This document shows, piece after piece, positions 4,852 to 46,617 of a stretch of DNA of 64,000 nt. The notes under the pieces are model-generated. The model was not told the DNA's origin. It searched no databases and saw only the letters and a list, made by a program, of their open reading frames with translations. Position 1 is the first letter of the stretch. Every line of letters begins with the position of its first letter. Source of the DNA: Saprospira grandis str. Lewin (GTDB taxonomy: Bacteria; Bacteroidota; Bacteroidia; Chitinophagales; Saprospiraceae); NCBI RefSeq assembly GCF_000250635.1, contig NC_016940.1, positions 1,416,995 to 1,480,994 on the forward strand. Reading direction: 5' to 3'. The translations under genes were made by a program, and so were the position numbers.

Positions 4852-4885
4852 GGCCCAACTCCTTATTGGAGTTGGGCCTTTTTTA
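4852..4885. terminator. bidirectional rho-independent terminator between convergent genes
   Basis: GGCCCAACTCC-TTATT-GGAGTTGGGCC followed by TTTTTT; an A/T run on the other side too. Confidence 0.6.
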
Positions 4886-6019: not shown

Positions 6020-6051
6020 CTGTATTTTTTTAGCTTTTCTATCTAATCCAG

Positions 6052-11560: not shown

Positions 11561-12835
11561 CCAACGGGCAAAAAGCAAACAACTATTCACATCCCCAAAG
11601 CCAAAACTCGCCTTGGCCATATAGCGCAAATCGGCCGCCTCCATTTGCAGGGGAATACAGGCGGCAGAAATCTGGGCCGCAATCTCGGGATGAAGATCTT
11701 CGGCATTTTTGCTGGGGTGCAAAAAGCCATGGACCAATTGCAAGACCACCGCCACCGACTCAATGGCGCCCGCCGCCGATAAACAATGACCAATCAAGGA
11801 TTTTAGGCTATTAATCTTAGGAAAATCATCGGCAGAGCGGCCCAAAGCCCGCAGCCAAGCCCCAATTTCGGCAGGGTCGCCCATGGTGGCCGTCAGATGG
11901 CCCGAAATAGCGTCTAGCTCCTGCGCAGCAATGCCCGCATCGGCCAAAGCCAAGCGAATACAGCGCTCAATCGCCTTGATATTGGGAGCCGTCATGCTGC
12001 CCCCCTGACGCTGACCGCCCGCATTTAAATGCCCCCCTTTTAGCTCGGCATAAATGTGCGCGCCCCTTGCTTGAGCCGAGGCCAAACTCTCTAAAACCAA
12101 TGCGCCAGCGCCACTGCCGGGCACAAAACCCGCCGCCTGCTCGCTCATTGGGCGAGAAGCCTGCTCTGGGCGGTCATTAAACTTGCGGCAAAGCACCCGC
12201 ATCGAATCAAAACCCGCCCAAATATATGGACCAGAACTGTTGCAGCTGCCGACCAGCATCCGCTCCGCTCGTCCCGACCGAATACGATCATAGCCCATTA
12301 ATATGGCCTCACTGCCCGTGCTGCAAGCCGCCGAATTAGAACTCAACTGATTGCCAAGGCCCAAAAAACCGCCCAAATAAGCGCTGATGCTGCTCTCCAT
12401 CGTCTGTTGAATCAAAGAAGAGCCAATGCGGCGGACCTTGCCCGCATCCACCTTATAAATTCCCTCTCGAACCACCTCAATACTAGACTGCCCGCCGCCA
12501 AAAATGCAGCCCGCCTCCCAATCGGGTTCCTCTTCCTTTTCAGAAATTGGCAAGGCGGCATCCTGCCAAGCCTCTAGGCCCGCCAAACAGCCATACATAA
12601 GGCCAGAGCCCTGAATATATCGCCTTTGTAAGGGCGTCAAAAAGCTATTAATGTACTCTTCGGTCAGCGGAGGGCTGCCTGCGACTCGACAAGCAAACTG
12701 TAGCTCCTCCAAATCTGGACGATAGCTAATTCCCGACTTTCCCGACTGCAAAGCGGCCAAAAAATCGGCCTTTCCCAAGGCGTTGGGAGCCACAACCCCC
12801 AAACCCGTAATCACGACTCTATTTTCCTGCATCAT
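11549..12835 (-). CDS. beta-ketoacyl-[ACP] synthase (FabF/FabB-like KAS I/II)
   Basis: 428 aa. Ketosynthase fold with active-site Cys in NSAACSTGSEA and downstream His motifs (HLTATMGDP; GHCLSAAG). Confidence 0.85.
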   Translation of the reverse strand: MMQENRVVITGLGVVAPNALGKADFLAALQSGKSGISYRPDLEELQFACRVAGSPPLTEEYINSFLTPLQRRYIQGSGLMYGCLAGLEAWQDAALPISEKEEEPDWEAGCIFGGGQSSIEVVREGIYKVDAGKVRRIGSSLIQQTMESSISAYLGGFLGLGNQLSSNSAACSTGSEAILMGYDRIRSGRAERMLVGSCNSSGPYIWAGFDSMRVLCRKFNDRPEQASRPMSEQAAGFVPGSGAGALVLESLASAQARGAHIYAELKGGHLNAGGQRQGGSMTAPNIKAIERCIRLALADAGIAAQELDAISGHLTATMGDPAEIGAWLRALGRSADDFPKINSLKSLIGHCLSAAGAIESVAVVLQLVHGFLHPSKNAEDLHPEIAAQISAACIPLQMEAADLRYMAKASFGFGDVNSCLLFARWEGK

Positions 12836-13280
12836 GGCTATTTTTTTTGGTCCACATTCCCGCTAATTCGGCCTTAGCGACCAGATCGCCAGCCTCATTA
12901 TAGGCTGAGGCCGTCACTCGAAGCTGTTGGAGACGAAATAATTTCTTTTTGGCCTCTACCCTCAGCAGCTCTCCAGGGCGATGGAGCTGGTAAAAATTCA
13001 CCTTAGAGCTACTAAAAGCAATTTTGGGGACCTCCTGCAGCTCCTCTTTCAATAAATAAATGCCTAGGCAAACCAGGCCAATTTGGGCCATGCACTCCAA
13101 GAGCAGCACCCCGGGCGTAATGGGGTCTTCGGGAAAATGGTCCGCATAAAAAGGGGCATCCTCTGCAAAGCGGTATTGGCCAATAACGCCCTCCTCATTC
13201 AGCTCCAACAACTCATCTACAAAGCAGAAGTTGGGACCATAGGGAAGCAAGGCCAAAATATCTTGATAGTTTTCTTTCAT
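12819..13280 (-). CDS. FabZ/FabA-like 3-hydroxyacyl-ACP dehydratase (hot-dog fold)
   Basis: 153 aa. HFPEDPITPGVLLLECMAQ matches the FabZ catalytic His / PGVL motif. Confidence 0.75.
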   Translation of the reverse strand: MKENYQDILALLPYGPNFCFVDELLELNEEGVIGQYRFAEDAPFYADHFPEDPITPGVLLLECMAQIGLVCLGIYLLKEELQEVPKIAFSSSKVNFYQLHRPGELLRVEAKKKLFRLQQLRVTASAYNEAGDLVAKAELAGMWTKKNSHDAGK

Positions 13281-13286
13281 CTTTTC

Positions 13287-14096
13287 TTAAATCAATCGTT
13301 CTCCCCCATCTACGGGGATAATAGCGCCATTAATCCAAGCCGATTCTGCTCGGCAAAGCAGCTCGATGACTTTGGCCACATCTTCGGCCTTAGTCATTCG
13401 GCCCAAGGGGTTTCGGCTTTTGGCAAATTGGGCCAAATCATCGCTGCCTGGAATCAGTTGAAAAGAGCGAGTATTCATCATGCCCGCCTGTACAATATTG
13501 GCTCGGATGCCCAGAGGCGCATACTCTAGGGCCATAGAACGGATGATAGCCTCTAGGGCCGTTTTGGCGGCAGATACAGCCGCATAATGGGACCAAGCCC
13601 GCTGGTTGCCGCCACTACTGAGGCCCAAAATTCGGGCATCTTCGGCAAAGCGGCCTAGAGCAATTAATCCCTGCGCCCAATCGACAATACTATAGGCCAT
13701 ATTTTGGGCCGTGAGCTGAAAATCAGTACTCGTCAAATTATTCTGTCCTAAAAAAGCCTTGAGATTTCCCTTGGCAATACTATGCAGCAACAGCCGAAAA
13801 CGCGCCTCAGCAGGCAGGCGTTCCGAGAGCTCGGCCAAAGAGCGAGCAATTTGCTCCTTCTGCGTAGCATCCACATTATAATGCAAAATGCTTACGCCCG
13901 TTTCTAGGGACAAGGCCTGAAAACGAGCTTGGGCCTCTCGGGCATCGGCTCGCCTTTCTCGATAATAAATGCAAAGCGACATGCCCTTTTTGGCCAGTAC
14001 TTGAGCCGCAGCCCAACCTAATCCAGAAGAGCCCCCTAAAATGAGCCCCCAAAGTTCTTTTTCCTTATACATGGGTTTACTAATTTTCTGGGGCAA
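13287..14096 (-). CDS. FabI-like enoyl-ACP reductase (SDR with Y-x6-K)
   Basis: 269 aa. Gly-rich NAD(P)-binding N-terminus. SHYAAVSAAK gives Tyr-x6-Lys spacing, typical of FabI rather than a classical YxxxK ketoreductase. Confidence 0.65.
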   Translation of the reverse strand: MPQKISKPMYKEKELWGLILGGSSGLGWAAAQVLAKKGMSLCIYYRERRADAREAQARFQALSLETGVSILHYNVDATQKEQIARSLAELSERLPAEARFRLLLHSIAKGNLKAFLGQNNLTSTDFQLTAQNMAYSIVDWAQGLIALGRFAEDARILGLSSGGNQRAWSHYAAVSAAKTALEAIIRSMALEYAPLGIRANIVQAGMMNTRSFQLIPGSDDLAQFAKSRNPLGRMTKAEDVAKVIELLCRAESAWINGAIIPVDGGERLI

Positions 14097-14099
14097 AGC

Positions 14100-15158
14100 C
14101 TACTCCCAATTTAATAATAGCCGCTGGGCCGAAAAGCCTGGGCCAAAGCTAAGCATTAGGCCCTTTTCGCCTGCGGCAATCTCCTTTTCTAGATAGCGCT
14201 CGAGCACATAAAGCACCGTGGCCGAAGACATATTGCCATAAAGGCGCAAGACCTCCTTGGTCTCCTCGATATTTTTGCCCAAATCGGCAAAAAGGCCCTC
14301 TACCATCTGTACAATCTTTTTGCCGCCAGGATGAAAAATCAAATGCTCAATCTCTTCGATCGTCAAGCCATTCTTTTCAATAAATGGGAAGAGGACCGAT
14401 TTAAAATGTCGCTCAATTTTATTGGGCACTTCCTTGTCCAAAATCATTTGAAGGCCCGTATTGCGCAGCTTGAAGCCCATCATATCAATTTCGTCATAAA
14501 AATGATACATTTCTCCTGCAATAATGGCGGGTTTTAGCTCCTCAGAGGGCCCCAAAATGGTACAAACCGCTCCATCGCCAAAGATGGCCGCACTGACCAT
14601 ATTGACCATACTCATATCATCCTGCTGAAAGGTAGCCGTAGGCGACTCAAAAGCGACGATAGCCGCCCGCTTACCCGGATTGGCCAAAAGCAGATTATAG
14701 GCATAAATCAAAGCGGAGGTTCCCCCCGCACAGCCCATTTCCGTTACGGGCAAACGCATAATATCTTGGCGCATTCTCAGCGCATTAATCAAGTAGGCAT
14801 CTATAGAGGGAATCATAATGCCCGTACAGCTCACACTAATGATAATATCGATATCTGTAGGCTGCAAATTGGCTTTTTTGAGGGCCCCTTCTACGGCTTG
14901 CTGCGTCAGTAGGGTATATTCCTCGGCATAGCGGGCATTTTTTTCTTCAAAAGAAGTTTGCTGAAACACCTCTTCGATATCCATAATAGAATAGCGGCGA
15001 TCTACCTGCGCATAGCGAAAAATACGCTCCACCTTACGGCGAAAGCGTTCGTCTTGGCCCTTGGCCTGCAGCCAAAGATCGATATAGGGTAAAATATCTG
15101 CTGTAGATCTAGAATAGGGCGGCAGGGCCTTATGTGTGGAAAGTATTTTTATAGACAA
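14100..15158 (-). CDS. type III polyketide synthase (chalcone/stilbene synthase superfamily)
   Basis: 352 aa. Catalytic triad motifs MGCAGG (Cys), FHPGG (His) and GNMSSATV (Asn), plus C-terminal GFGPGFS. Confidence 0.8.
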   Translation of the reverse strand: MSIKILSTHKALPPYSRSTADILPYIDLWLQAKGQDERFRRKVERIFRYAQVDRRYSIMDIEEVFQQTSFEEKNARYAEEYTLLTQQAVEGALKKANLQPTDIDIIISVSCTGIMIPSIDAYLINALRMRQDIMRLPVTEMGCAGGTSALIYAYNLLLANPGKRAAIVAFESPTATFQQDDMSMVNMVSAAIFGDGAVCTILGPSEELKPAIIAGEMYHFYDEIDMMGFKLRNTGLQMILDKEVPNKIERHFKSVLFPFIEKNGLTIEEIEHLIFHPGGKKIVQMVEGLFADLGKNIEETKEVLRLYGNMSSATVLYVLERYLEKEIAAGEKGLMLSFGPGFSAQRLLLNWE

Positions 15159-17149: not shown

Positions 17150-17660
17150 GGCTGCCCCTTCGGCCCTTTGGGCCTTCGGGTCGGGCTCTGTCGCAGCTCG
17201 CAGGTCTGCTCGGCCCTGCGCCGCCAAGGGCGGCTGGGTCTGGCCCTTTGGGCCACTGCTATCCATCCCTCAGCCTGCGGCGGCTTTGCCGCCTGCTATC
17301 TGTGCTTGTAGGTGAACACCTACAGCAAGAGCGGTATTGCTGCGCAAGCTTATAGGCAACTTGGACCAAGTCTGCAGCTAGCTTGTTGCCCGCCTCCCCG
17401 AGGGATTCCTTAGGGAATCCCGCAGAGGGGTGGGTGGGCGGGGACATATAAACGAATGAGGAGCGCAGCGACGAATACCGCTTAAAAGGGAAGGCCAAAA
17501 GGCCGAAGCCTAAAGATTTGAAGCAACAAAAAAAGTGGAGCGGCCCAGCGCTGCGGAGGGGTGGCCGAAGGCCAGACCGAGCTTTTGAGCAAAGCGAAAA
17601 AGCGAAGGGCCGAACAGGCCTGTGAGCCCCGCAGCATAGCGGCGGCCAGCAAAGCTGGCC
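17150..17660 (-). repeat. composite dispersed repeat, about 510 bp, inverted copy of 11020-11560
   Basis: Reverse complement matches 11020-11560 module for module (GGGATTCCTTAGGGAATCCC, GTAGGTGAACACCTAC, terminal GGCCAGCAAAGCTGGCCGCGGGCCCCAAAAAAAA). Confidence 0.8.
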
Positions 17661-20164: not shown

Positions 20165-21465
20165 AAATTTGGTCAATAGAGACTAGGAGGCGAGTGGTAA
20201 AATTTAGATGACCCGGTCAGGGAAACAGACACAAAGCTGGCTGAAAACTTTGGTCCAACCAGCTCGTTTGACCTTCCATCGTTTTTGAATTTGCATAGCG
20301 GCTAAATAGATAGATTTTATGGCCGCAGCATCATTTGGAAATGAGCGTTTGTTATTGGTATATTTTCTCAGGCCAGCATTAAAGCCTTCAATAATATTTG
20401 TGGTATAAATAAGCTTTCTGATTTCTTGAGGATAGTATAAAAAGACAGTGAGATTGTCCCAGTTTTTCTCCCAAGATTTAATGATGTAAGGATAGCGATC
20501 ACCCCATTTTTCTTCAAAATCTTGAAGCCGATTTCTGGCCTCAGCTTCATTAGGAGCTGTATAAATGAGCTTAATATCTTTGGCCACTTTTCTTCTATTA
20601 GAGGCTTCAACAACCTTCATAGAATTGCGAATTTGATGGACCACACAAATTTGATGAGCTGCCTGAGGAAAGACGGCCTCAACGCTTTGGTCCAAGCCAG
20701 CTAGATTGTCTGAGCAGATAAATAAAACATCCTTTACCCCTCTTGTTTTAATGTCATTCAAAGTTGTAGCCCAATTTGCAGCAGTCTCTTTTTCAAAGAG
20801 ATACATGCCAATAATGTCTTGGTAGCCTGCTAAATTAACCCCAAGGACAATCATGCAAACCTTGCTCTTAATCTGCCCATCTTCTCTAATTTTATAGTGA
20901 ATCCCATCAATCCAAAGAATCGCATATTTCTCATCAAGAACCCGATTTTGCCACTCTCGAATACTATCTAAGAGGCTATTAGTAATGGTTGTAATTTGAC
21001 TCTTAGAGTACTGCTGCCCATAAATTTCATCCATATACTCTACTATATCAGACAGGCTCATACCTTTAGCATACAATAGTGTAATCACACTCTCCAGCTT
21101 AGCCGTCATCGACTTGTGTTTGGGGACCGTTACAGGGTCAAATTTACCCTCTCGATCTCTTGGTATTTCTATTTGTAATTTGCCACTTTCCGTCTTGATC
21201 TTCTTTGAAGAATGGCCATTTCTGCGATTTTCTCCTTGGACTTCTTCGCCACGAGCATACCCTAAATGCGCTGACATTTCTCCTTCTAACAAACTTTGAA
21301 TTCCTCGTTTTTTGAGGTCATCTGTTAGCTTGTCTAGCTCCTCAATGTTCTTCACATCTCCTAGTAGGCGGTTTAATAACTCTTCTTGTTTCTTGTCCAT
21401 AGCGGTACTTTTTTTCTAAGTAATTAAATTGATATTAAACCTCCTAATCTTTACCCCTTTTTTTG
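20165..21465 (-). mobile_element. IS256-family insertion sequence (boundaries approximate)
   Basis: A single mutator-type transposase gene flanked by imperfect terminal inverted repeats (GACTAGGAGG... at the left end; reverse complement GATTAGGAGG... at the right end). AT-rich compared with flanks. Confidence 0.6.
20204..21400 (-). CDS. IS256-family (mutator-type) transposase
   Basis: 398 aa with the typical IS256 transposase architecture (DxxH, CVVHQIRNS, D/E-rich catalytic core). Confidence 0.85.
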   Translation of the reverse strand: MDKKQEELLNRLLGDVKNIEELDKLTDDLKKRGIQSLLEGEMSAHLGYARGEEVQGENRRNGHSSKKIKTESGKLQIEIPRDREGKFDPVTVPKHKSMTAKLESVITLLYAKGMSLSDIVEYMDEIYGQQYSKSQITTITNSLLDSIREWQNRVLDEKYAILWIDGIHYKIREDGQIKSKVCMIVLGVNLAGYQDIIGMYLFEKETAANWATTLNDIKTRGVKDVLFICSDNLAGLDQSVEAVFPQAAHQICVVHQIRNSMKVVEASNRRKVAKDIKLIYTAPNEAEARNRLQDFEEKWGDRYPYIIKSWEKNWDNLTVFLYYPQEIRKLIYTTNIIEGFNAGLRKYTNNKRSFPNDAAAIKSIYLAAMQIQKRWKVKRAGWTKVFSQLCVCFPDRVI

Positions 21466-23599: not shown

Positions 23600-23935
23600 T
23601 TTGGGGCCTGCGGGCCTTTGGCCCGCCCTTACGCTTCGGGGCTCGCAGGTCTGCTCGGCCCTGCGGCGGCTGCGCCGCCTGGGTCTGGCCTTCGGCCACC
23701 CCTACGCATCAGTAGGCCGCTCATCTTTTTGGGGAGCTCGGGGCGGGGCGGCTGCGGCCGCTAATTGGTCCAGAAAGGCGCGAAGCGCCTTGGCTTAGGG
23801 ATGGAAAGCAGTGGCCCGCAGGGCCAGACCCAAGTTTTTTGAAGCGAAGCGAAAAAAACTGCAGGGCCGAGCGAACAGCGAGCTGCGACACAGCCCGACC
23901 CGACCGCAGGGAGGGGAAGCCCCAAAAAAACGACT
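23600..23935. repeat. two dispersed-repeat copies in inverted (head-to-head) arrangement
   Basis: Forward copy about 23605-23730 (GGGGCTCGCAGGTCTGCTCGGCCCTGCGGCGGCTGCGCCGCCTGGGTCTGGCC...CACCCCTACGCATC). Reverse copy about 23790-23935 (...GGGCCGAGCGAACAGCGAGCTGCGACACAGCCCGACC...CCCCAAAAAAA). Confidence 0.75.
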
Positions 23936-25717: not shown

Positions 25718-25721
25718 CAAA

Positions 25722-25757
25722 AAAGCGCTAAGCCCTTGGGGCTTAGCGCTTTTTTAG
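25722..25757. terminator. bidirectional rho-independent terminator between recJ and the giant repeat-protein gene
   Basis: AAAAAAGCGCTAAGCCC-ttgg-GGCTTAGCGCTTTTTT; an A-run on one side and a T-run on the other. Confidence 0.7.
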
Positions 25758-25776: not shown

Positions 25777-28700
25777 TTAGTTCAAATCATTTTCCATTAG
25801 GCCGCCACCATTGAGGCCAGCTCCTAGGTCCATTTGGACCTCTAACTGGTTAATCAGGCTTTCACCAGCTTTAAGACTTAGGCTAGCAAAATCGACAGTA
25901 ATATCTCGGCTATTGCCGCCATCTTCTACAGGCACCGAAAACTGTCCAGCTTGTAGCTTTACCTCTCGGCTACTTTCTAAGTACTCGAAAGAATTGGAGC
26001 TAAACTTCAGGTCGGCAATTTGGAACTCCACAGCTGCTTGGTGGAGCCAATTGGCTTGACTATCGGAGGTATAGAAAGCGCCATTTCCTTGAATTTGGAG
26101 TTGGCTATCTTGGTAGCTATAGCTTCCTTGGAGCGTAAACTCATCATTGGTCATGCTAAGATAATCGAGTAGGGCTTTGGGTTCGGAGCTACCGCCCTTA
26201 GTAAAGCCGAGTTGGTCCTCGATACCTTCATAAACCATATTGAGTTCCTCGAAGGCTTCAAAATGTTCCTCTTGAGCCATTTCGAGTTCCTCCTGTAATT
26301 CGTCTAATTCTGCTCGGATCTCTTCTAATTCGCTTTGTTCCTCTGCGGACAATTGATTTTCTCGGGCTTCTAGCCCTTCTTTAGCGATCGTTTTCTCCTT
26401 AATTTGATCTTGGAGATCTAGGGTCGCATCTTCTGCAGAATAGAAAAGCTCTTGATCTTGGGCCACCACATCGGTGTACTCAAAAAGCAGGTCTAGTACC
26501 GGATCGTATTGGTTGAGTAAAGAAAGGCTATTCACATCTCCATCTTCAATCAGACCTGCTTCGAGTTGCTCATGTATTTTTTCTACTGCGCTATATTCGG
26601 CATTACCAGAGCCCACGCCATCTACGCCTGTATTTCCGGCTAGGACCTCTTGAATTCCGGCGGTATATCCGGCTTGGAAGCCCTCCTTATATTGTTGGAA
26701 AAAGGGTTGGATTTGGCTTTGGTAAAGCGCTTGAAAATTAGCTTTTAGTTGTTTGCGAATAGATTTATCGAGGCTACGTTTGCCCTCCTTATCTAGTTCG
26801 GCAATAAAATTATCGTATTCTGTTTGTAGGGCCAGTACTTGGTCCTCGATATAATCATTTTGGTTTTGGCCTGGGGCCAAAGCGGTAGGATGTTCTTGTC
26901 CAAAAATGCGCTCAAGGTCTTTATAGGCATTAGTCACCTCTGTGGCTAAGGCTTTATCCTCTTCTGAGGCAGAAGTTTGTTGTAAAGCCTCTGACTTCTC
27001 TTTTTTGATGAGTTCATTTAAGGCCTTTCTCATCTCGCCAACTAGGCGGTAGCGGCCTTTCTCCATTTCGGCAGAAGAGGCATTTGGGCTTTTATAAGAG
27101 TCATCGATGAGGAGTTCGCGAGCTTTTTCATAGCCTAGAACATACTTATCTTGACCAACATTACCAGCGGCGGCCAGCAATTGGTTTTGATAATCGGTTG
27201 CTTCGGCTAGGGCGGCTCCTTCCTCGGCGGTATCTGAATTATTGATTCCTTCTACCAGGCCTTTTCTGGCTCCACGGATATAGCCTTCTTTAAAGTTTTG
27301 CAGTTGTTTTTCCCATTCGGCGATTGCGCTGCGCAAGAACTGTTTCTCTTCATTAGACAGCTGTTCTGAGAGTAAGCCTTCGGCCTGTTTGCTCAATTCT
27401 GCGCTTAATTCCTGATAATTTTCTAGGGGCGTAGCATTTTGGTCAAAGCTAAGCAGGCTTTGAGCTTGGCCTTCAATTTGGGCCAGCAACGCTGGGATTT
27501 GGCTATCCTCTAATTCTTCGGCGGCAGCTTGGCCCGACTCTTTAGCGGCCTGAATAATTTGGGGTACAAATGCTTTCAGGTCTTCGAGCATAGTAGGCAC
27601 ACCATTGGCTTCAAACTCTCCTTGGAGGTTGGCCATTTGGCTCGGGCTAGCTTGGCGTTGATCTCGTCCATAGGCATAGCCTTTTTCATAGGCGCTGGCA
27701 TAGGCATCGCCCAGCGTGCTGCGTAGCTCCTCTATTCTTTGGTCGAGGACAGAGCCTGACTTTTTGGTTTCTCCCTTAATTGTTTGGTTCAGGCCATCTT
27801 GGCGACCATTTGTACGGCCGAGGTGGAACTGTCCTTCTAATTCAGAAGCATAAGAGAGGCTAGGATCTTTGGGCGTATAGCTTAATTCTTCAAAATTATC
27901 GCCTTCTTTTTCGTTGGTAGCGGCTAGATAGCCTTGTTGATACCCTAGGTTATAGGCTTCTCCCTTATCAAAAAGATATTGGTAACCTTCTAAGAAGCCC
28001 TCTTGTGTGGGGGCATCTAATTCTGCGGCGACCGTTTCTTTGGTGGCTTCAAAGCTCTCGCCATTCAGCAAGGCCTTTTTATGTGCTTCAATATCTTTTC
28101 GGGCAGTTTCTTGGCCCAGCTGATAGCCTCTATCGTGGCCACCGCCTTGCATTTTTCGGCTCACCTCTTCCGTAGAGATCAGGCCAGCTTGCAGCATTTG
28201 GGCCATCTTATAGCCTTCTGCGCGACCGGCATTAAAGGCGGCAAGCGTATTCTTATCGGCTTGGGCATATTCTGCATCCTTGCCAGCGGCAGCGGCCAGC
28301 GCCTCTTCTTGTCCTGCTAGCGGAGGATAGCCCTCCAAAGACTGATAGCCAAAGAGCAGACCATCTTGGCGGGCTTTTTCGGCATTATCTTCTTTGGCCA
28401 CCTTGGCGGTAGCATCATCTAATGCTTGCTGGTAGCCTTTTTCGATTTCGGTCATTTGGCGATCCACCTCTGCTTGGGGATCTTCATTACTGCTGCCTTT
28501 TTTTGTATTGGCGGCTGTTTTTTGGGCCTGCTCTTCTAGCTCTTTGCGTTTTTTGGCCAATGCGGCCTGCATTTTGGCGGCTTTTTGGGCTAAGATCTCA
28601 TTGGCTTGAGCTTTAGCGGCCTCTGCAGTTTGGGCTTCGGGGGCTTCCTCATCGCCATAAAGCTTTAAGCTTCCGCTCAGTTCTTCAGTTAGTTGGCCAC

Positions 28701-31700
28701 TAGCCATTTTGGCAATATAGAGCCAGTTATCATAATCGAGATCATAGCCTTCACGGTACTCCTTAGATTGGCCAATAGAAGCAGCTTGAGCGCTATCATT
28801 TTCATAGCCATCAATCATTTGAGAGAGCGCTTGGCCTCTAAAATTATCATATTGGCTAGCTTGGCGACCAGCATTATAGCCTTGATAATAATGCTCTTGC
28901 GCTCCGGCTTCTTTTTGTTTGCCTGTCATGGCATCATCATAGCCAGCAAAATACAGTTTTCCTTCTCTGGCACCAGCGGCGCTGCCCACCTCATAGCCTT
29001 TTTCGAAGGCGGCTTCTAGCTTTTTGGTATCTGCTTTTCCTTGCATTTCCTCTTCAATCACCTTAGCCAGGCCTTTCTTTTTATTGGTCCAGGCTTCTTC
29101 TGGTGTTTGGCTGGGGCGTTCTTTAGCGGTAGCGCTCTCGTATTTAAACCAGAGGCCATAGCCATATTCCCAGCCTTTTTCGACATAATCGACACCGCCA
29201 GACGTTGCGCCAAACTCCTCCTTTGCATTTCGGATAGTTTGCGCTTCTTCTCGCTCCTCTTTAGTTTGGGCCTGTTTGCCTGCATTATTTCCGCTGTATA
29301 CCGTTTGGTTGTAGCCGACATAAAAACCTTTTTCGAACTCCTCCCCTTCTGCTTTTGCATTGGCAAAAGCCTCTTTGACCTTGGCATCGACCTCGGCCTT
29401 TTTCTCGGGCTTGCCAATAGCTGCTTGATAGTGCTGATAGAAGAGCCCGCCCATATGTCGGCCGGCCTCATAGCCTTTTGCCTTAGGGCTATCGGCGGCT
29501 ACAGACATCTCTTTATCGACTAGCTTTTGCTTTTCGACATTATAGTTCGTATTGAAAGCATGATAATAGCCTGTGCTGAACTCTTTTTTGACATTTTCAT
29601 CATTGAGTTGCGCCTTAATTGTGGCTAAGTTCTCTTCAATTTTTTCAATTTTGGCCGTTAGTTCCTCTTTTTTAGCGGGATCTTCAGTTGCCTTAAGTTC
29701 CTTTTTATATTTATCGAGATTAACGGTAGCGGCTGCGGCAATTTTACCAATATCTTGGCCCTTCTTATACTCTACACTATTGGTTTTGGCCTTTTGTTCA
29801 TTATCGAGCTTTTGCTGCTTAAACTGATTATAAGAGGCATTAAAAGCGTGATAATAGCCTACCTCAAAGCTTTTCTTTTGCTCTGCGGTTTGTTCTTTAT
29901 CCTTTCCTTCTGCAAAATACTGTTTAGCTGAATCGGGGACTGGGGGAAGATTCTCGCCCAATTCGGAGAGGGGCAGGCTTCCTTTGAGGACCTGCGTCGC
30001 TTTTTCTTTAGAAGACATAGCGGCAAGGGTGCCTAAAACATGGCCCACTGCATAATGAGGATCTTTTTTACGCTCATCTTTTTCCGCCTGAACCTTTGTC
30101 TCTTTGCCCTTCATATAAGAGGCATTAAAGCCATGATAAAAGGCTCTAGAATAAAGCTTTTTGGGATCTTCCGCAATAGGTTGACCGGAACTATCCTTAT
30201 TGGCTTTGGCGTAAGTGGCGGCTTGTTGGCCCTCCTCCTTGCTCATGCCTTCGGGAGCCTTGCCTTGGCCTTGGGCCAAACCAATATTATAGCCTAGTTC
30301 ATAGCCTTTGCGATAAGTGGGATTTTCCATCAGCTCTGCGGGGCCGGGCATTGACTTTTTGACAGCGGCGGCTCGGGCCTGCATATAGACCGCATTAAAG
30401 GCGCGATAATAAGCGACTTGATAGGTTTTAGAGCGGCTTTTCATGGCCGCTTTAATTTCTTTTACTCTTTCCTTATCCTCGGCCTTATTGCTATTACTTT
30501 TCACGGCAGATTCAGTCCCATCCTTAGTGCCTTCTTGGGCTTCGGGATCGGTTGCCATTTTTTGTTGTTCTTCTATTTGGGCGGCCTCCACCTTTAGTTT
30601 TTGGCCTTCTGGATAGCCTTGATTAAAGCCCTGATAAAAGCCCGTTTGGTACTTTTTGCTTTTGCTAGCCATCACCTCTTTTTGGGCGGCCACATAAGCA
30701 TCTGCGGTTTCGCCTTCTGCAAAGGGCGTTACATTCATTTTGCCAGACTCATCGGTAGTCACTTTTTTGCCCAGGCCGCCAGAGCGGCCAACATCTAAAC
30801 CAAAGGCTCGGCCAGCTTCTAATTCTTGGGCCTCTGCACTTTCTTCGGCAGTTTGGGCCACGGGGCCCATATTCATACGGGCGGCAAAGGCGGCACCGAC
30901 CTCCTCGCCTTTTTGCTCGCCGGTAGTTGCATTGGCGGGGGCTTCGCCTCCTGCGGCAGAGTTTTGCTGTTTATTTTGGGGATTGCCCGTTGGGCTAGTT
31001 TCTCCAGTTGATTTATCTCCGCCTTTTGCTCCTGTTTTTGCGCCCACCTTAGCTTCTTCGGGGCTGACCTCCGTATTCATTTGGCTAGCTTGGCGAGCGA
31101 TTTCCTCTGACTTTGCCTCTGTATTTTCGCTGCTATTTTCGCTACTGCCCTCCTCTGTTTCTCCTTCGGCCAGGGTTTCTTCTAGGGCCGCTTTGAGTTC
31201 TGCTGCTGCGGCGGTGGCCTTATCTTCAGCAAGAGTTTCCTCTATAGCGGCATCTAGCTCTGTTTCATTAAAGCTAGGGACTTCTTGGCCTAGGGTGGCG
31301 GCAATTTCGGCATCTAATTCGGCCTCATTGAAGGCGGCGCCTAGAGGCGGCATTTCTGGACCTTCCTCGGCGGTGGTTGTTGTTTCCTTGCCTGCGTTTT
31401 CTTCCTCTCCTCCTTCTTGCAAGCTAATCCCTTCGGCTAGTTTTTCGATACCACTATTGAGGCTAGCGGCAGATAATTGTTCATTGAGGGGATTTGCGGA
31501 TTCGTTTAGGGGTTGGCTAAACTCCTCTTGAGTGCTTTCTTGATGAAAGCCTTCGGCCGCAGTTTGGACCACCGCATTAGCTTGGCTATTGAGTTGTTCG
31601 CCCGCAGATTGAACAGACTGCAACTCTTCATTGGCCTCAAATTCCTCGAGGCTTTGGTAGAGTTGTTCGTAAATGCGTTGATTTTCTTGCGAAGAATTTT

Positions 31701-31716
31701 GATTTCCCTTAGACAT
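25777..31716 (-). CDS. giant (1979 aa) acidic, coiled-coil-like repeat protein of unknown function
   Basis: Long uninterrupted ORF with no signal peptide. Composition is rich in E, K, A, Q and G. About 25 degenerate repeats of G-[YF]-[YF]-x-[AG]-[FY]-N-x-x-Y (for example GYYHAFNASYN, AFYHGFNASYMKG, GFYQGFNQGY, GYQQGYLAATN) spaced about 40-70 aa apart. Confidence 0.7.
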   Translation of the reverse strand: MSKGNQNSSQENQRIYEQLYQSLEEFEANEELQSVQSAGEQLNSQANAVVQTAAEGFHQESTQEEFSQPLNESANPLNEQLSAASLNSGIEKLAEGISLQEGGEEENAGKETTTTAEEGPEMPPLGAAFNEAELDAEIAATLGQEVPSFNETELDAAIEETLAEDKATAAAAELKAALEETLAEGETEEGSSENSSENTEAKSEEIARQASQMNTEVSPEEAKVGAKTGAKGGDKSTGETSPTGNPQNKQQNSAAGGEAPANATTGEQKGEEVGAAFAARMNMGPVAQTAEESAEAQELEAGRAFGLDVGRSGGLGKKVTTDESGKMNVTPFAEGETADAYVAAQKEVMASKSKKYQTGFYQGFNQGYPEGQKLKVEAAQIEEQQKMATDPEAQEGTKDGTESAVKSNSNKAEDKERVKEIKAAMKSRSKTYQVAYYRAFNAVYMQARAAAVKKSMPGPAELMENPTYRKGYELGYNIGLAQGQGKAPEGMSKEEGQQAATYAKANKDSSGQPIAEDPKKLYSRAFYHGFNASYMKGKETKVQAEKDERKKDPHYAVGHVLGTLAAMSSKEKATQVLKGSLPLSELGENLPPVPDSAKQYFAEGKDKEQTAEQKKSFEVGYYHAFNASYNQFKQQKLDNEQKAKTNSVEYKKGQDIGKIAAAATVNLDKYKKELKATEDPAKKEELTAKIEKIEENLATIKAQLNDENVKKEFSTGYYHAFNTNYNVEKQKLVDKEMSVAADSPKAKGYEAGRHMGGLFYQHYQAAIGKPEKKAEVDAKVKEAFANAKAEGEEFEKGFYVGYNQTVYSGNNAGKQAQTKEEREEAQTIRNAKEEFGATSGGVDYVEKGWEYGYGLWFKYESATAKERPSQTPEEAWTNKKKGLAKVIEEEMQGKADTKKLEAAFEKGYEVGSAAGAREGKLYFAGYDDAMTGKQKEAGAQEHYYQGYNAGRQASQYDNFRGQALSQMIDGYENDSAQAASIGQSKEYREGYDLDYDNWLYIAKMASGQLTEELSGSLKLYGDEEAPEAQTAEAAKAQANEILAQKAAKMQAALAKKRKELEEQAQKTAANTKKGSSNEDPQAEVDRQMTEIEKGYQQALDDATAKVAKEDNAEKARQDGLLFGYQSLEGYPPLAGQEEALAAAAGKDAEYAQADKNTLAAFNAGRAEGYKMAQMLQAGLISTEEVSRKMQGGGHDRGYQLGQETARKDIEAHKKALLNGESFEATKETVAAELDAPTQEGFLEGYQYLFDKGEAYNLGYQQGYLAATNEKEGDNFEELSYTPKDPSLSYASELEGQFHLGRTNGRQDGLNQTIKGETKKSGSVLDQRIEELRSTLGDAYASAYEKGYAYGRDQRQASPSQMANLQGEFEANGVPTMLEDLKAFVPQIIQAAKESGQAAAEELEDSQIPALLAQIEGQAQSLLSFDQNATPLENYQELSAELSKQAEGLLSEQLSNEEKQFLRSAIAEWEKQLQNFKEGYIRGARKGLVEGINNSDTAEEGAALAEATDYQNQLLAAAGNVGQDKYVLGYEKARELLIDDSYKSPNASSAEMEKGRYRLVGEMRKALNELIKKEKSEALQQTSASEEDKALATEVTNAYKDLERIFGQEHPTALAPGQNQNDYIEDQVLALQTEYDNFIAELDKEGKRSLDKSIRKQLKANFQALYQSQIQPFFQQYKEGFQAGYTAGIQEVLAGNTGVDGVGSGNAEYSAVEKIHEQLEAGLIEDGDVNSLSLLNQYDPVLDLLFEYTDVVAQDQELFYSAEDATLDLQDQIKEKTIAKEGLEARENQLSAEEQSELEEIRAELDELQEELEMAQEEHFEAFEELNMVYEGIEDQLGFTKGGSSEPKALLDYLSMTNDEFTLQGSYSYQDSQLQIQGNGAFYTSDSQANWLHQAAVEFQIADLKFSSNSFEYLESSREVKLQAGQFSVPVEDGGNSRDITVDFASLSLKAGESLINQLEVQMDLGAGLNGGGLMENDLN

Positions 31717-31859: not shown

Positions 31860-32030
31860 CATTTGCGCTTATTTTTGGCCTAGCGATGTGCAGGGGTGGC
31901 CGATAGGCCAGACCAAGGCGGCTTTGCCGCCGCAGGGCCGAGCGAATAGCGAGCCCCGAAACGTAGCGCCGCAAGCGGCCCAATGAGCGATAGCGAATAG
32001 AGGGCCGCGCAGCGGAGGCCCCAAATCAAA
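31860..32030 (-). repeat. dispersed GC-rich repeat, reverse orientation
   Basis: GGCCTAGCGATGTGCAGGGGTGGCC...GGCCAGACC...GGGCCGAGCGAATAGCGAGCCCCGAAACGTAGCGCC...GGAGGCCCCAAA. Confidence 0.75.
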
Positions 32031-32042
32031 AATAAAAAGAAT

Positions 32043-32549
32043 TTGAAGATGAACAGCAAGAAAATTTGGAGCTTAGGCGCTTTACTTTTGTTGACGGTTA
32101 GCCTAAAGGCGCAGATTGTAGACAACAGTCATTTGGTGAACCTCAAGGAGGTGCTTCCCTATGTTTATATTTTTTACGGCCTGACCTTTTTGGCCCTTAG
32201 TTTATTGATTATGAAGCTCTTGAAGCCTCAAATGAAGACCTACTTTTTGTATGCGGCTTGTATTTTGGGCATTTTGGGGGCAGTTTTCACGAATCAGGCC
32301 TTTAATCGGGTACAAGAAGAGCAGCTGCCGGAGGTAGCGGGCAGTGAAATTCCGAAAGAAGAGATGAGCGATTATAGCCGACAGATGGTGGAGAAACAGG
32401 AGCGGGAAGTGGAGCAGCAAAAGATGGCGAACTTCTGGATTATTGCCATTCCGAACATCATTATGTTGGGTTTGGGGGTAGTTATAGACATAAAAGCCCG
32501 TCAATCGGGGAATGACGGGCAGCTTCGTGGTCGTTATGACGGGATGTAA
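32043..32549 (+). CDS. hypothetical membrane protein
   Basis: 168 aa with a signal/TM N-terminus, three further TM helices and an acidic central loop. Confidence 0.45.
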   Translation: MKMNSKKIWSLGALLLLTVSLKAQIVDNSHLVNLKEVLPYVYIFYGLTFLALSLLIMKLLKPQMKTYFLYAACILGILGAVFTNQAFNRVQEEQLPEVAGSEIPKEEMSDYSRQMVEKQEREVEQQKMANFWIIAIPNIIMLGLGVVIDIKARQSGNDGQLRGRYDGM

Positions 32550-35234: not shown

Positions 35235-35420
35235 CGATTTGGGGCCTCCCGCCTTCGGCGGGCGCTACGCTTTGGGGCTCGCAGGTCTGCTCGGCCCTGC
35301 GGCGGCTGCGCCGCCTGGGTCTGGCCTGACGGCCACCCCGCCGCATCGCTAGGCCAATTGGCCCCTTGGGCCAAAGGCGGCTTCGCCGCCTTGCCAACGA
35401 AAAATATACTTCCAACAAAA
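35235..35420 (+). repeat. dispersed GC-rich repeat, forward orientation
   Basis: GGGGCCTCCCGCCTTCGGCGGGCGCTACGCTTTGGGGCTCGCAGGTCTGCTCGGCCCTGCGGCGGCTGCGCCGCCTGGGTCTGGCC...CACCCCGCCGCATCGCTAGGCC. Confidence 0.75.
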
Positions 35421-37194: not shown

Positions 37195-37370
37195 GCTCTT
37201 TTTCGGCTAGGGCCAAACAAAAGCGGCCCCCTCTGGCCTAGCGATGTGCAGCAGTGGCCGTCAGGCCAGACCGAAGCCCGAAGGGCTGAAGGGCCGAGCG
37301 AATAGCGAGCTGCGAAACGTAGCGCCGCAAGGCGAAGCCGCAGCGGAGGCCCCAAAAAACATCCCCCTAC
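37195..37370 (-). repeat. dispersed GC-rich repeat, reverse orientation
   Basis: GGCCTAGCGATGTGCAGCAGTGGCCGTCAGGCCAGACC...GGGCCGAGCGAATAGCGAGCTGCGAAACGTAGCGCC...GGAGGCCCCAAAAAA. Confidence 0.75.
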
Positions 37371-40779: not shown

Positions 40780-40960
40780 GGAGGGAATTTGGGGCTGCCC
40801 CGCCCTCTGGGCGGGTCGGGCCATTGCGCAGCTCGCAAGTCTGCTCGGCCCTGCAGCGGCAAAGCCGCTTTGGTCTGCCGCCTGCGGCGGCCCTGCTACA
40901 GCCCCTCAGCCTGCGGCCCCTTCGGGCCCTGCTAGACCCAAAAAGGGCCAGCCATTTTCT
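40780..40960 (+). repeat. dispersed GC-rich repeat, subtype B, forward
   Basis: GGGGCTGCCCCGCCCTCTGGGCGGGTCGGGC...GCAGCTCGCAAGTCTGCTCGGCCCTGCAGCGGCAAAGCCGCTTTGGTCTGCCGCC...CCCTCAGCCTGCGGCC. Confidence 0.75.
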
Positions 40961-41759: not shown

Positions 41760-41940
41760 AGGGTTAAATCCTTTTTTTGCGGCGGACAGGCGGCGAAGCC
41801 GCCGCAGGCTGAGGGATGGGCAGCAGGGCCGCCAAAGGCGGCAGACCAAAGCGGCTTTGCCGCTGCAGGGCCGAGCAGACCTGCGAGCTGCGAGACAGCC
41901 CGACCCGCCCAGAGGGCGGGGCAGCCCCAAACAATAATAT
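41760..41940 (-). repeat. dispersed GC-rich repeat, subtype B, reverse
   Basis: GGCTGAGGGATGGGCAGCAGGGCCGCCAAAGGCGGCAGACCAAAGCGGCTTTGCCGCTGCAGGGCCGAGCAGACCTGCGAGCTGCGAGACAGCCCGACCCGCCCAGAGGGCGGGGCAGCCCC. Confidence 0.75.
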
Positions 41941-41999: not shown

Positions 42000-43430
42000 T
42001 TAATTGCCAATGTAGCCCTTCATGGCTCCAGACAAATAGTAGCCATCAATGAAGCTACCGAGCAGGCTGTGGCCGTTGCGCTTAACGGCAAAGCCCGCTG
42101 TTCCCCCTACTGGGAAATTAGTGTTGGGTGGGTCGGGAAAATCTTGGTCATAAAGTGTAATCATCCCTACGACGGGCGCCCCCACTTGTACCAAAACATT
42201 GACAAAGAGGTAGCCCGCCTGCCCATCCTCGCCATAGCCACCGCCATCGCCGCCATAAACATTGGGCGTAATGGTAAAATCTGCCCCAAAGAGGTTAAAG
42301 TTGTAGGGATTGTTCAAGGCGCCGCCTCGACCTCCCTGAGCAAAGGCTCCCGTTCCTGCCGTTTGGCCTGGCTCATAGTATCCAAAGCCCGATCCTAGGT
42401 TGCCTCCAGCCCCACCATAAGCACCGCCGCCACCACCAGCACCAATGCCTAGGTTATAAGTCCCAATGCCCAAGTTAATGGGTTGGATCATCCCCACAGA
42501 GCCCCCGCCGCCGCCACCGGAATAGATACGGCCTTGGTTGCGCAAATCCGTGTCTACGGTCAGACTAATCGCATGGGTCCCATCAAAGCCAGTTCCAGCA
42601 CCGCCACCACTAGCGCCTGCGCCAGCACCGCCATCGCCACCACGGGCCAAGAGGGTCCCTTGGTTGAGAATGCCGACCTTAGAGTCGGGATGTAGCCCAC
42701 CTGTAGTAAAGACGGCAGGAGCCGTAGGATTGTCTAGGACCACCCCAGGACCAATGGTTGCAAGTACACAAATAGGTACGGCCGTTGGCAAAGCATTGGC
42801 CGCTTGCAAATCATAATCACTTTGAGGCGAGTTAATATATACTTCCATACAACTATCTACGGCCACCACAAACACTTGGTTACCGACAGTATTTCCACAA
42901 ACGGCCTGAACAATCACAGAATAGACGCCAGGAGGCGCAAAGATATCAGCCTCCACATTGAGTTGTATCGTATCGGTTCCATTTACTATATGCTGATCCA
43001 AACTAGCCGTAATGCCCGCAGGCAGGTTAGGGATGATGTAGACCGAGATGTCATTGGAAAATCCATTGCGTTGATTGAGGTACAAATAAGCCGAATCTCG
43101 ATTGGTATACACTCGGTCAATGTGCCCAGCAGGATTATCTATCCGAAAATCAAAGGCACAATCATCACAACTGCTCTGATTGAAGGCCAACCAGCAGCTG
43201 CCGTTAAAATATTCCATAAGGCTATCTGTAGCATTATAGACCGTAAGTCCCGGCTTGGGATTTTGGATATTATCTCTTTGTTGGCGGCTCATCCGAGGAG
43301 GCAAAAAGCCTCTATCGGTAGATTCTAGATGCAAAACCGCGCTGCTATCTGGCTGCAAGATGTTGATCCCAACTTGTGCAGTAAGCGGAAGGGCCAAAAG
43401 TAAGCCCAAAAAAGCAAGTATTGTTTTCAT
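42000..43430 (-). CDS. secreted glycine-rich protein with a conserved Bacteroidota N-terminal domain (possible fibre/adhesin-like)
   Basis: 476 aa with a signal peptide. N-terminal QVGINILQPDSSAVLHLES..GFLPPRMSRQQRDNI.NPKPGLTVYNATDSLMEYFNGSCW. The middle and C-terminal parts are dominated by GGxGxG / GGGGG runs. Confidence 0.55.
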   Translation of the reverse strand: MKTILAFLGLLLALPLTAQVGINILQPDSSAVLHLESTDRGFLPPRMSRQQRDNIQNPKPGLTVYNATDSLMEYFNGSCWLAFNQSSCDDCAFDFRIDNPAGHIDRVYTNRDSAYLYLNQRNGFSNDISVYIIPNLPAGITASLDQHIVNGTDTIQLNVEADIFAPPGVYSVIVQAVCGNTVGNQVFVVAVDSCMEVYINSPQSDYDLQAANALPTAVPICVLATIGPGVVLDNPTAPAVFTTGGLHPDSKVGILNQGTLLARGGDGGAGAGASGGGAGTGFDGTHAISLTVDTDLRNQGRIYSGGGGGGSVGMIQPINLGIGTYNLGIGAGGGGGAYGGAGGNLGSGFGYYEPGQTAGTGAFAQGGRGGALNNPYNFNLFGADFTITPNVYGGDGGGYGEDGQAGYLFVNVLVQVGAPVVGMITLYDQDFPDPPNTNFPVGGTAGFAVKRNGHSLLGSFIDGYYLSGAMKGYIGN

Positions 43431-44940: not shown

Positions 44941-44994
44941 TATTCTTCCCTTTTTATTGCTTTGGATTTAGGCCAAGCCTTCTAAATAATCCCT

Positions 44995-45350
44995 CAGTGC
45001 ATTTTTTTTCTAGCGAATGCTCCAAAAGAGTTGAAATGCAGTATTTCTTTTCCAGCAAATGCTAAGAATAAATCCACCAGAGCGTTTTTTTTCCAGCAAA
45101 TGCTCCAAAAGAGTTGAAATGCAGTATTTCTTTTCCAGCAAATGCTAAGAATAAATCCACCAAAGCGTTTTTTTTCTAGCAAATGGCCTGAGGGATGCTA
45201 TCTGAGCGTTTTTTTTCCAGCAAATGCTCTTTTGGAGTTCCAATGCAGTGTTTTTTTTCCAGCGAATGGCCTGAGGGATGCTATCTGGCCATTTTTTTCC
45301 CAGGCAATGCTCCAATGCAATCATATTGTCCTTATCTTTTTTCGGTAACC
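44995..45350 (+). repeat. tandem array of about 9 direct repeats with a TTTTTTTTCCAGCAAATGC core (period about 40 bp)
   Basis: Two near-identical 80-85-bp super-units (TTTTCCAGCAAATGCTCCAAAAGAGTTGAAATGCAGTATTTC + TTTTCCAGCAAATGCTAAGAATAAATCCACCAGAGCG) followed by degenerate units. Lies directly upstream of the gene at 45370. Confidence 0.85.
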
Positions 45351-45369: not shown

Positions 45370-46617
45370 ATGCGCTATACTATATTAGCTAGTCTATTTT
45401 CTTTCTTGATTTTAATGGCTTGTCAGTCGGAACAAGGGCCATTGGCCCCTATTAAAGACAAAAGTTTAGAGCAAGGAGCTTGGCGGGGGCTTTTGCGCCT
45501 CAATGACAGTTTGGAGCTCCCCTTTGAGTTGGCTTATGATGGGCAGTCTTGGGAAATCATCAATGGAGAGGAGCGGATTCTCTTGCAAGTAGATTCTTTA
45601 GGGCCAGACAGTATGCGTTGGACCCTACCTGTTTTTGGGACCTACTTCAACATCAAGCAATTGAATAGGCATCAGTTGCGGGGAGAGTGGGTAAACAGCC
45701 AAAAAGAAGACTATCGTCTTCCGTTTAAGGCGGAAGCTGGCCAAGCTTTTCGCTTTGGACCAAAAACAGCAGCCCAAAGCAGCTTGGCCAAAAAGTGGGC
45801 GGTACAATTTTCTCCTCAAGACAGTGCCAATAGCTATCCTGGAGTAGCCTTATTTGAGCTCGACCCTCAAACTTCTATTCTAAAAGCTAGCTTTATGACC
45901 GAAACAGGCGACTATCGTTATTTGGCTGGAGAATTTAAGCGCGAGCGCTTGCAGCTTTCAGCCTTTGATGGGGCGCATGCCTTCTTATTTACCGCCCAGC
46001 GGCAGGGCGACGGCAGCCTATGGGGGCAATTCTACTCGGGCAAGCATTGGTCTACCTACTGGCGAGCGCAGCCCAACCCCAAGGCCCAGCTCCGCCCCAT
46101 GGACAGCCTCTCTTTTTTAAAGGAAGGCTATGAGAAAATAAGCTTTAGCTTTCCCAACTCGCAGGGGGATAGTTTAAGTTTGGAAGATGAGCGCTTTGAG
46201 GGCAAAGTTGTTATTGTTCAGATTATGGGTAGTTGGTGTCCCAACTGCATGGATGAAAGCCGATTGTTAGAAGAGTACTACAGACGTTATCGGAAAGAGG
46301 GGCTAGAAGTCATTGCCCTAAGTTATGAGTTGCCTAAAGATATGGACAACTTCAAGCAAATAGAAAAGCGCTTACGGACTGACTTAGGCATTAGCTATCC
46401 CATGGTTTTGGCGGGGCCAGCAGATAAGAAAGCGGCGGCCAAGAGTTTGCCCATGCTCAACCATATCTTATCTTTTCCCACGGCCATTATTATAGATCGT
46501 CAGGGGAAGGTGCGGAAAATCCATACGGGCTTTAATGGCCCTGGAACAGGAGACTACTACGAAGAATATCGAGAAGAATTGGCCCAATTGATTGAGCAGC
46601 TATTGGTAGAACAATAG
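45370..46617 (+). CDS. TlpA/ResA-like thiol-disulfide oxidoreductase (thioredoxin fold) lipoprotein
   Basis: 415 aa. Lipobox LMAC. C-terminal thioredoxin-like domain with a GSWCPNC active site. Confidence 0.7.
   Translation: MRYTILASLFSFLILMACQSEQGPLAPIKDKSLEQGAWRGLLRLNDSLELPFELAYDGQSWEIINGEERILLQVDSLGPDSMRWTLPVFGTYFNIKQLNRHQLRGEWVNSQKEDYRLPFKAEAGQAFRFGPKTAAQSSLAKKWAVQFSPQDSANSYPGVALFELDPQTSILKASFMTETGDYRYLAGEFKRERLQLSAFDGAHAFLFTAQRQGDGSLWGQFYSGKHWSTYWRAQPNPKAQLRPMDSLSFLKEGYEKISFSFPNSQGDSLSLEDERFEGKVVIVQIMGSWCPNCMDESRLLEEYYRRYRKEGLEVIALSYELPKDMDNFKQIEKRLRTDLGISYPMVLAGPADKKAAAKSLPMLNHILSFPTAIIIDRQGKVRKIHTGFNGPGTGDYYEEYREELAQLIEQLLVEQ

Follow-up and report, generated by a model that had tools for sequence, protein, structure and literature searches.

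We analyzed a giant gene of the predatory bacterium Saprospira grandis str. Lewin that lies in a 64,000-nucleotide stretch of contig NC_016940.1 (positions 1,416,995 to 1,480,994; hereafter the window, in which all coordinates without a locus name are given). The gene runs from ATG to stop at 25777..31716 on the minus strand and encodes a protein of 1979 aa with a mass of 216.5 kDa and an isoelectric point of 4.63. It is the longest open reading frame (ORF) of the window by a threefold margin, the runner-up having 631 aa. The product is identical to AFC24152.1, WP_015691789.1 and UniProt H6L7T1 and carries the annotation "hypothetical protein." It is dominated by alanine (13.1%), glutamate (12.9%), glycine (8.5%), lysine (8.2%) and glutamine (7.9%), and its net charge is -136. 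Neither a signal peptide nor a transmembrane helix was detected (the highest 19-residue Kyte-Doolittle mean is 0.70), so the protein should be cytoplasmic. The length record, the composition and the lack of a signal peptide had all been described correctly in a first-pass annotation made from the DNA letters and their translations.

The whole gene is under strong purifying selection, with a ratio of nonsynonymous to synonymous substitution rates (dN/dS) of 0.08 at a dS of ∼1.06 in comparison with the orthologue of Saprospira sp. CCB-QB6, which is 86% identical and lies in conserved synteny. Between these two proteins there is not one indel from aa 300 to the end, a span of 1680 residues; the first 300 residues are the only part with indels, evolve at the highest dN/dS and are the least conserved when distant homologues are compared. 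S. grandis strains Lewin, DSM 2844 and WHT, as well as many metagenomes, carry identical or nearly identical copies of 1975 or 1979 aa, and full-length close relatives in the protein collection share 86-98% identity. A long ORF arising by chance, or unrelated genes fused by sequencing error, would have only the low-complexity composition in its favor. Given the selection over the entire gene, the copies in three sequenced strains, and homologues from other Saprospiraceae that are collinear end to end, we regard the chance of such an artefact as practically nil and the artefact as excluded, in line with the earlier judgment that it was unlikely.

The most conspicuous property of the protein is a short aromatic motif that recurs along its length. 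The loose pattern [GA][YFW]xx[GAS] was found 38 times at 26 distinct sites, compared with 9.3±2.8 matches in shuffled sequences, with a median spacing of 51 aa; [YF]xx[GA][YF] matched 28 times (2.4±1.5 in shuffles) and the stricter [YF][YF]x[AG][FY]N seven times (0.007 in shuffles). With a profile of a 30-residue unit, seven copies were clear, all of them within aa 352-963, and five more were weak. The recurrence of the motif noted in the first-pass annotation was thus confirmed, and its figure of about 25 repeats holds for the loose motif, at 26 sites, and not for the strict unit, with its seven clear and five weak copies. All of the motif strings that it quoted are present, although GYYHAFNASYN occurs once (aa 620) and not twice. 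Self-comparison, which it had also proposed, defined a repeat unit of ∼76-96 aa, in most of which an FYxGFNxxY helix is followed ∼35 residues later by a second helix, YxxGxxxGxxxA.

The motif pattern corresponds to a small-residue stripe of period four with an aromatic residue directly after each small one. There are 30 runs of [GA]xxx[GA]xxx[GA], compared with 15.6±3.3 after shuffling; the first position after the small residue (x1) is tyrosine or phenylalanine in 32% of cases, compared with 7.5% across the protein, and x2 and x3 are mostly alanine, glutamate, glutamine or lysine. Judged from the sequence, the motif is a predicted glycine/alanine stripe with an adjoining aromatic stripe on one face of a helix. 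The longest run has five small residues, and ∼26 short runs of two to five units are spread over 1400 residues. No tandem repeats exist at the DNA level within the gene; recent tandem duplication of DNA was therefore rejected as the origin of the repeats, which must be old.

Several parts can be distinguished along the protein, all on the minus strand. The N-terminal acidic segment (aa 1-300; 30817..31716) has a net charge of -47, is poorly conserved and is probably disordered. The conserved body starts with a family motif, GRSGGLGKKV (aa 310-319; 30760..30789), in which G310 and G316 are invariant. It continues with the seven strict repeats (aa 352-963; 28828..30663), which follow the pattern [KR]-K-x-[YF]-x-x-[GA]-[YF]-[YF]-x-[GA]-[FY]-N-x-x-[YR] and in most units carry the second helix as Y-x-x-G-x-x-x-G-x-x-x-A ∼35 aa later. 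A degenerate continuation (aa 964-1700; 26617..28827) contains ∼12 further helices with [GA]-aromatic-x-x-[GA] stripes and family-invariant glycines such as G1164/G1168, G1300/G1304/G1308, G1478/G1486/G1490 and G1679/G1683. It is followed by a predicted long antiparallel acidic helical hairpin (aa 1737-1836; 26209..26508; predicted local distance difference test score, pLDDT, 80-94) and by a conserved C-terminal beta-rich domain with a tail (aa 1853-1979; 25780..26160; pLDDT 55-73). AlphaFold2 (AF2) was run on aa 1360-1979, where a single sequence gave an unusable model (pLDDT 44.7) and an alignment of nine sequences raised the pLDDT to 61.7. These models, of low to moderate confidence, show nothing other than helix from aa 1360 to ∼1840 and a beta domain at aa 1853-1949. 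A Foldseek search of the PDB with the AF2 model returned nothing below E 0.01 and only generic helical hairpins; weak resemblances to LptA/LptC-like and colicin-like folds were not trusted, and the C-terminal domain has no confident fold match. About 34 prolines between aa 330 and 1850, together with the conserved glycines, keep the helices of the body short, and this speaks against extended, unbroken coiled coils of the crescentin or coiled-coil-rich protein (CCRP) type.

Neither the giant sequence nor its family profile matched any sequence of Pfam, PHROGs, NCBIfam or the PDB. No Pfam family was reached at E≤1, and the best PHROGs match (E 0.11) was to a family of unknown function. When aa 780-1979 were compared exhaustively with 1.84 billion representatives by phmmer, ten proteins were returned; the full-length ones measure 1957-2179 residues and share 22-27% identity with the giant protein. 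With a 2009-residue ORF in locus L010 and the 1843-residue protein P0041, these make up a family of collinear proteins of 1843-2179 residues that align end to end. All members for which an organism name was available come from metagenome-assembled genomes of Saprospiraceae, and none has a functional name, so the family is, as far as this collection reaches, confined to Saprospiraceae. The family has been neither described nor annotated, and its motifs are arranged in an unusual architecture. The orthologue search suggested beforehand had a positive outcome, and the claims that the protein is novel and bears no enzymatic motif have stood: a confident match to a known repeat family did not appear either.

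Conservation within the family is concentrated in the residues of the motif. Of all glycines, 46% are conserved, followed by tyrosines (29%) and phenylalanines (26%), and the invariant columns are mostly glycines four apart; the motif is thus the selected core of the family, whose alignment contains no conserved 7-10-mer. The acidic N-terminal part varies from 237 to 357 aa, and 1699±79 residues separate the GRSGGLGKKV-type motif from the C-terminus. A natural form of 861 residues, which makes up the P0011 cluster and was encountered in several samples, covers no more than the N-terminal half.

In S. grandis the giant gene is solitary. Downstream lies a convergent recJ, whose product is identical to AFC24151.1, and between the two genes is a hairpin with a 17-bp stem (25719..25755) flanked by runs of A and T, which looks like a bidirectional terminator and would make the giant gene the last of its transcript. 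Upstream are a repetitive extragenic palindrome (REP)-like element and a divergent gene on the plus strand (32043..32549) for a membrane protein of 168 aa and unknown function. This neighbor is conserved in CCB-QB6 (L001) and in loci L004 and L011, the copy of L004 being 45% identical to that of the window.

The gene has other neighbors in more distant relatives. In loci L002, L003, L004, L006/L008, L009 and L013, a gene for a secreted protein of ∼100 aa comes next on the strand of the giant gene, and after it one for a protein of ∼260 residues with CIS_tube and LysM domains; in L013 this cassette follows the 861-aa short form. In L010, cassette and giant gene are transcribed divergently, with a split second cassette flanking the giant gene on its opposite side. 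The giant homologues of these seven cassette-adjacent loci share only 22-27% of their residues with the window protein. When used as a profile, the tube-LysM protein matched solved Cis7 structures of contractile injection systems (CISs), namely All3321 of the Anabaena thylakoid-anchored CIS (tCIS; 7b5h, E 2.7e-36), that of AlgoCIS (7aeb, E 7.7e-33), Afp7 and Pvc7. By these profile matches the neighbor is a predicted Cis7-like baseplate or tube-initiator protein of a CIS. A search with the Cis7 profile found none in viral contigs, and its metagenome matches were limited to very short contigs.

The small secreted proteins have ∼97-101 aa and a signal peptide, and the motifs WDTETGKSK and QLPSSPLY are conserved among them. 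Within L002-L018, one to three copies surround the giant gene, and their position is invariably just upstream of the Cis7-like gene; examples are L004 9045-9338, L006 7428-7721 and 8789-9091, and L005 4660-4965 and 5459-5752. This family had no match in Pfam, NCBIfam or PHROGs and is absent from the S. grandis window. In freshwater Saprospiraceae contigs, a gene resembling REP-associated tyrosine transposases (RAYT; IS200-type, Y1) recurs beside the modules of giant, small-protein and cis7 genes (L003 8968-9531, L005 6045-6653, L006 2-400, L014 3-467 and L009 4347-4517); this assignment was made by eye from an HFHFLIK motif.

Taken together, these data suggest that the giant family may supply the long "rhapidosome" of Saprospiraceae, their type VI secretion system subtype iv (T6SSiv), with a Cis14-like tape measure that acts as ruler or assembly scaffold, a reading that we hold tentatively and rate somewhat below an even chance. 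The Saprospiraceae T6SSiv is a membrane-anchored CIS that kills prey (Lien et al., 10.1101/2024.01.29.577165). In Aureispira, a sister genus within the family, it is 420±8 nm long, and insertion sequence (IS) insertions in cis14, the gene for its putative tape measure, abolish assembly; the rhapidosomes of Saprospira are considered likely T6SSiv (10.1101/2024.01.29.577165). We infer that the giant protein would lie inside the tube and set its length, as the counterpart of Aureispira cis14. The conserved C-terminal beta domain would dock the cytoplasmic protein on the hub of the baseplate, where the Cis7 tube-initiator ring and the spike sit, and the body of ∼1670 residues, with ∼26 short amphipathic helices that each present a small-residue stripe flanked by aromatics, would thread the lumen of the growing tube. 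The stripes of glycine or alanine and aromatics would permit tight packing of helices in a ruler that is probably trimeric, and polymerization of tube and sheath would halt once the end of the giant protein is reached. Many lineages would encode the giant protein beside the tube initiator, an arrangement shared by many phages; in marine Saprospira its gene would have been relocated or left alone.

The neighborhood of the giant homologues in seven related loci, each adjoining a Cis7-like gene, is one ground for this reading, and length is another. Alg14 has 526 residues for 120.6 nm, or 0.229 nm per residue, with engineered longer and shorter versions behaving as predicted, and a fit over several CISs gave a slope of 0.2156 nm per residue (10.64898/2026.05.27.728243). 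By these coefficients the 1979 residues would span 427-453 nm, the structure available for comparison being that of Aureispira; the family range of 1843-2179 aa would correspond to 397-499 nm, and a system of 420 nm to ∼1830-1950 residues. Length also appears constrained in its own right, as shown by the 1680 residues free of indels, the strain copies of either 1975 or 1979 aa and the nearly constant distance from the family motif to the C-terminus. CIS tape measures have an almost purely helical middle and ends of mixed alpha/beta structure (10.64898/2026.05.27.728243), and the AF2 models, at their low to moderate confidence, give the giant protein the same helical middle and a mixed alpha/beta terminus in a soluble protein. 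Its predicted location is the cytoplasm, where the T6SSiv assembles. The earlier suggestion of a role in predation has become plausible through the Cis7-like neighbor and a length that fits a prey-killing system of ∼420 nm, although the gene of S. grandis itself stands alone.

A number of observations weigh against a ruler. No recognizable CIS gene is present in the 64-kb window, and none lies beside the giant gene in CCB-QB6 (L001) or L011. Even where the cassette is present, neither cis8 nor another CIS gene follows the Cis7-like gene in any contig read, so that these genes are orphans, and each is preceded by a gene for a small signal-peptide protein, an odd partner for a cytoplasmic baseplate part. 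The cassettes of L007 and L014 have no giant gene directly upstream, and the 861-aa form does without the C-terminal domain through which docking would occur. Aureispira cis14 is drawn inside a CIS cluster (10.1101/2024.01.29.577165), whereas the giant gene of S. grandis is solitary, and the exhaustive phmmer search returned no match that could be assigned to Aureispira. If S. grandis has a T6SSiv cluster with a cis14 of its own, the giant protein would be something else. The lumen of phage-type tubes is usually negative, and the giant protein is strongly acidic. A compact solenoid, which would fall short of 400 nm, is an equally conceivable fold for its paired helices bearing GxxxG-type stripes. 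Finally, no similarity to a described tape-measure family was found in Pfam, PHROGs, NCBIfam or the PDB; tape measures are very diverse, which makes the lack of sequence similarity a weak criterion.

Alternatively, the protein may be a cytoplasmic helical-repeat scaffold independent of any CIS, for example a structural or organizing protein of the filamentous, helical Saprospiraceae cell, with the cassette adjacency in freshwater relatives reflecting inherited gene order or an insertion preference of a mobile cassette. In the window, L001 and L011, the contexts that are sampled best, the conserved neighbors are not CIS genes; they are housekeeping genes (thiolase, DUF4293) and the divergent gene for a membrane protein of 165-168 aa; the cassette occurs without a giant gene directly upstream of it, is duplicated in L010 and often adjoins a RAYT-like transposase gene; and paired conserved helices with glycine/alanine stripes resemble the packing units of a folded solenoid, in a protein for which no tape-measure similarity was detected. 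Nevertheless, chance hardly accounts for seven independent adjacencies at 22-27% identity, including one in the opposite orientation, the agreement with the 420 nm T6SSiv would have to be a coincidence, no cytoskeletal domain was found and the fold search gave only generic helical hairpins. We consider such a scaffold possible and rather unlikely. Concerning the first-pass annotation, which proposed a novel repeat-containing structural protein that might be cytoskeletal, related to gliding or a phase-separating scaffold, the repeat-built, non-enzymatic and non-secreted character stands and the specific roles were not supported. No finding favored a cytoskeletal, gliding or phase-separating function, and 1680 indel-free residues under strong purifying selection fit a defined structure better than a condensate scaffold.

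The association with Cis7 could also mean that the giant protein serves a CIS in another way, as a giant cargo or effector whose disordered acidic N-terminus mediates loading, as an assembly or anchoring adaptor working with the Cis7 paralogue and the small envelope protein, or as part of a second, undescribed tail-derived structure. The same Cis7-like neighborhood speaks for this as for a ruler, and the Cis7-like partners are orphan paralogues outside canonical clusters that are always coupled to a signal-peptide protein. The N-terminal ∼300 residues look disordered and vary in length, and the loading signals of extracellular CIS (eCIS) cargos are in general N-terminal and disordered. Cargos of AlgoCIS reach the tube lumen by means of an N-terminal loading sequence (10.64898/2026.05.27.728243). 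The 861-aa form further shows that the C-terminal half is dispensable in some lineages. On the other hand, the giant protein lacks any toxin, enzyme or DUF4157 domain, at 216 kDa it would make a very large lumen cargo, a strictly indel-free length is not expected of one, and none of the loci read has another CIS gene in the vicinity, which together make a non-ruler part in a CIS unlikely. A more specific proposal is that the giant protein, the ∼100-residue WDTETGKSK...QLPSSPLY protein and the orphan Cis7 paralogue form a self-contained module specific to Saprospiraceae that would build or anchor a structure derived from phage tails and separate from the canonical T6SSiv. The giant protein would in that case be a new kind of helical-stripe scaffold and not a conventional tape measure; we regard this proposal as quite improbable.

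A surface adhesin secreted through the type IX secretion system (T9SS) or Sec, of the SprB or GhpA kind, was considered and rejected, since the N-terminus is hydrophilic, there is neither a signal peptide nor a Pfam domain, and the body is helical and not immunoglobulin-like.

The window has further features of its own. An ORF of 476 aa on the minus strand (42000-43430), without a Pfam match, resembles the phage tail-fibre family phrog_11439 (E 9e-10); it is the sole tail-like signal in the window and lies ∼10 kb from the giant gene. GC-rich REP-like repeat families occupy intergenic positions at 17156-17246, 23601-23934, 31877-31970, 35237-35363, 37227-37326, 40791-40881, 41865-41939, 46674-46776, 50669-50813, 55903-56028, 58345-58489, 61400-61524 and 62383-62445. 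One copy is situated just upstream of the giant gene, and an exact 38-mer is common to 31917-31954 and 46723-46760. A tandem array with a 41-nt period and ∼14 copies (5966-6532) overlaps the 5' part of an ORF without a Pfam match (4883-6256, minus strand), and the ORF call appears doubtful there because the period is not a multiple of three. Two intergenic tandem arrays were found at 61885-62115 and 44988-45312; one is built from ∼11 copies of a 21-nt unit, CCAGACCGAACTAGTTCACCT, and the other from 41/83-nt units upstream of a gene of the AhpC/TSA family (45370-46617). A transposase gene of the IS256/Mutator family (20204-21400, minus strand) between two ArsR/HTH_5-like genes is absent from the syntenic site in CCB-QB6 (L001) and is thus a strain-specific IS insertion. 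Genes for an aromatic amino acid lyase, a ketoacyl synthase, a short-chain dehydrogenase and proteins like type III polyketide synthases (PKS) or ketoacyl-ACP synthase III (KAS III) at 6926-8428 and 11549-15158 resemble an aryl-polyene or flexirubin-type pigment locus, to which L001 adds a FabA/ApeP-like dehydratase.

If the giant protein is a ruler, its ∼2000 residues for ∼0.4 µm would, as far as known, place it among the longest tape measures assigned to a CIS; comparably long rulers exist in long-tailed phages, and the tail of P74-26 nears 1 µm. It would also be encoded apart from the machine that it measures, and a motif so far discussed mainly for FliH would offer a handle on how long rulers pack and on tuning the length of engineered injection systems. 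The function itself would be of a known kind and may already bear the label cis14 in the sister genus. Such an assignment would give a name to a conserved 216-kDa "hypothetical protein" of every sequenced Saprospira genome and would link a metagenomic orphan family to ixotrophic predation. If it is not a ruler, a strongly constrained, lineage-specific giant protein with a conserved Cis7-paralogue partnership would point to an undescribed use of tail parts.

Among known systems, phage tape measures were reportedly described by Belcaid, Bergeron and Poisson in 2011 as long helical rulers with ancient internal duplications and regular tryptophan or phenylalanine at a period of ∼11 residues. That aromatic period differs from the spacing in the giant protein, which matched no tape-measure family of PHROGs or Pfam. 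The deca-GX3 motif of the Yae1/Lto1 proteins is used for helix heterodimerization. These proteins share the period-4 glycine motif and are eukaryotic adaptors of ∼140 aa (PMC4523923). Membership of Yae1_N (PF09811) was rejected, with no Pfam family at E≤1. A similar stripe occurs in FliH/YscL; Bacteroidota, to our knowledge, have neither flagella nor a type III secretion system (T3SS). For the glycine repeats AxxxG(xxxG)mxxxA of FliH/YscL, a very close packing of helices has been proposed (PMC2674601; Trost and Moore, 2009). As in the giant protein, these are soluble helices with glycine or alanine at every fourth position and glutamate, glutamine or alanine at x2 and x3; tyrosine or phenylalanine takes x1 in above 45% of cases in FliH (PMC2674601) and in 32% here. 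Up to 10-12 GxxxG follow one another in a single segment of FliH, whereas the giant protein has ∼26 short scattered runs. The likeness is a resemblance of motifs and not membership, which was rejected for want of a Pfam FliH match and for a longest run of five small residues.

The nearest comparisons are found among the CISs themselves. The LysM protein of AlgoCIS (7aeb) is homologous to the Cis7-like neighbor of the giant family. Alg14 and Afp14/Pvc14 share with the giant protein a helical middle and mixed alpha/beta ends, and their length scales with the particle (10.64898/2026.05.27.728243); a repeat of glycine or alanine and aromatics is not known to have been reported for them. At 526 aa, Alg14 is exceeded nearly fourfold by the giant protein, and the two have no detectable sequence similarity. 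A further comparison is with Cis14, the putative tape measure of Aureispira sp. CCB-QB1, which is also a cytoplasmic protein of the Saprospiraceae (10.1101/2024.01.29.577165) and belongs to a T6SSiv that, by the CIS coefficients, would need a ruler of ∼1830-1950 aa, the size of the giant family.

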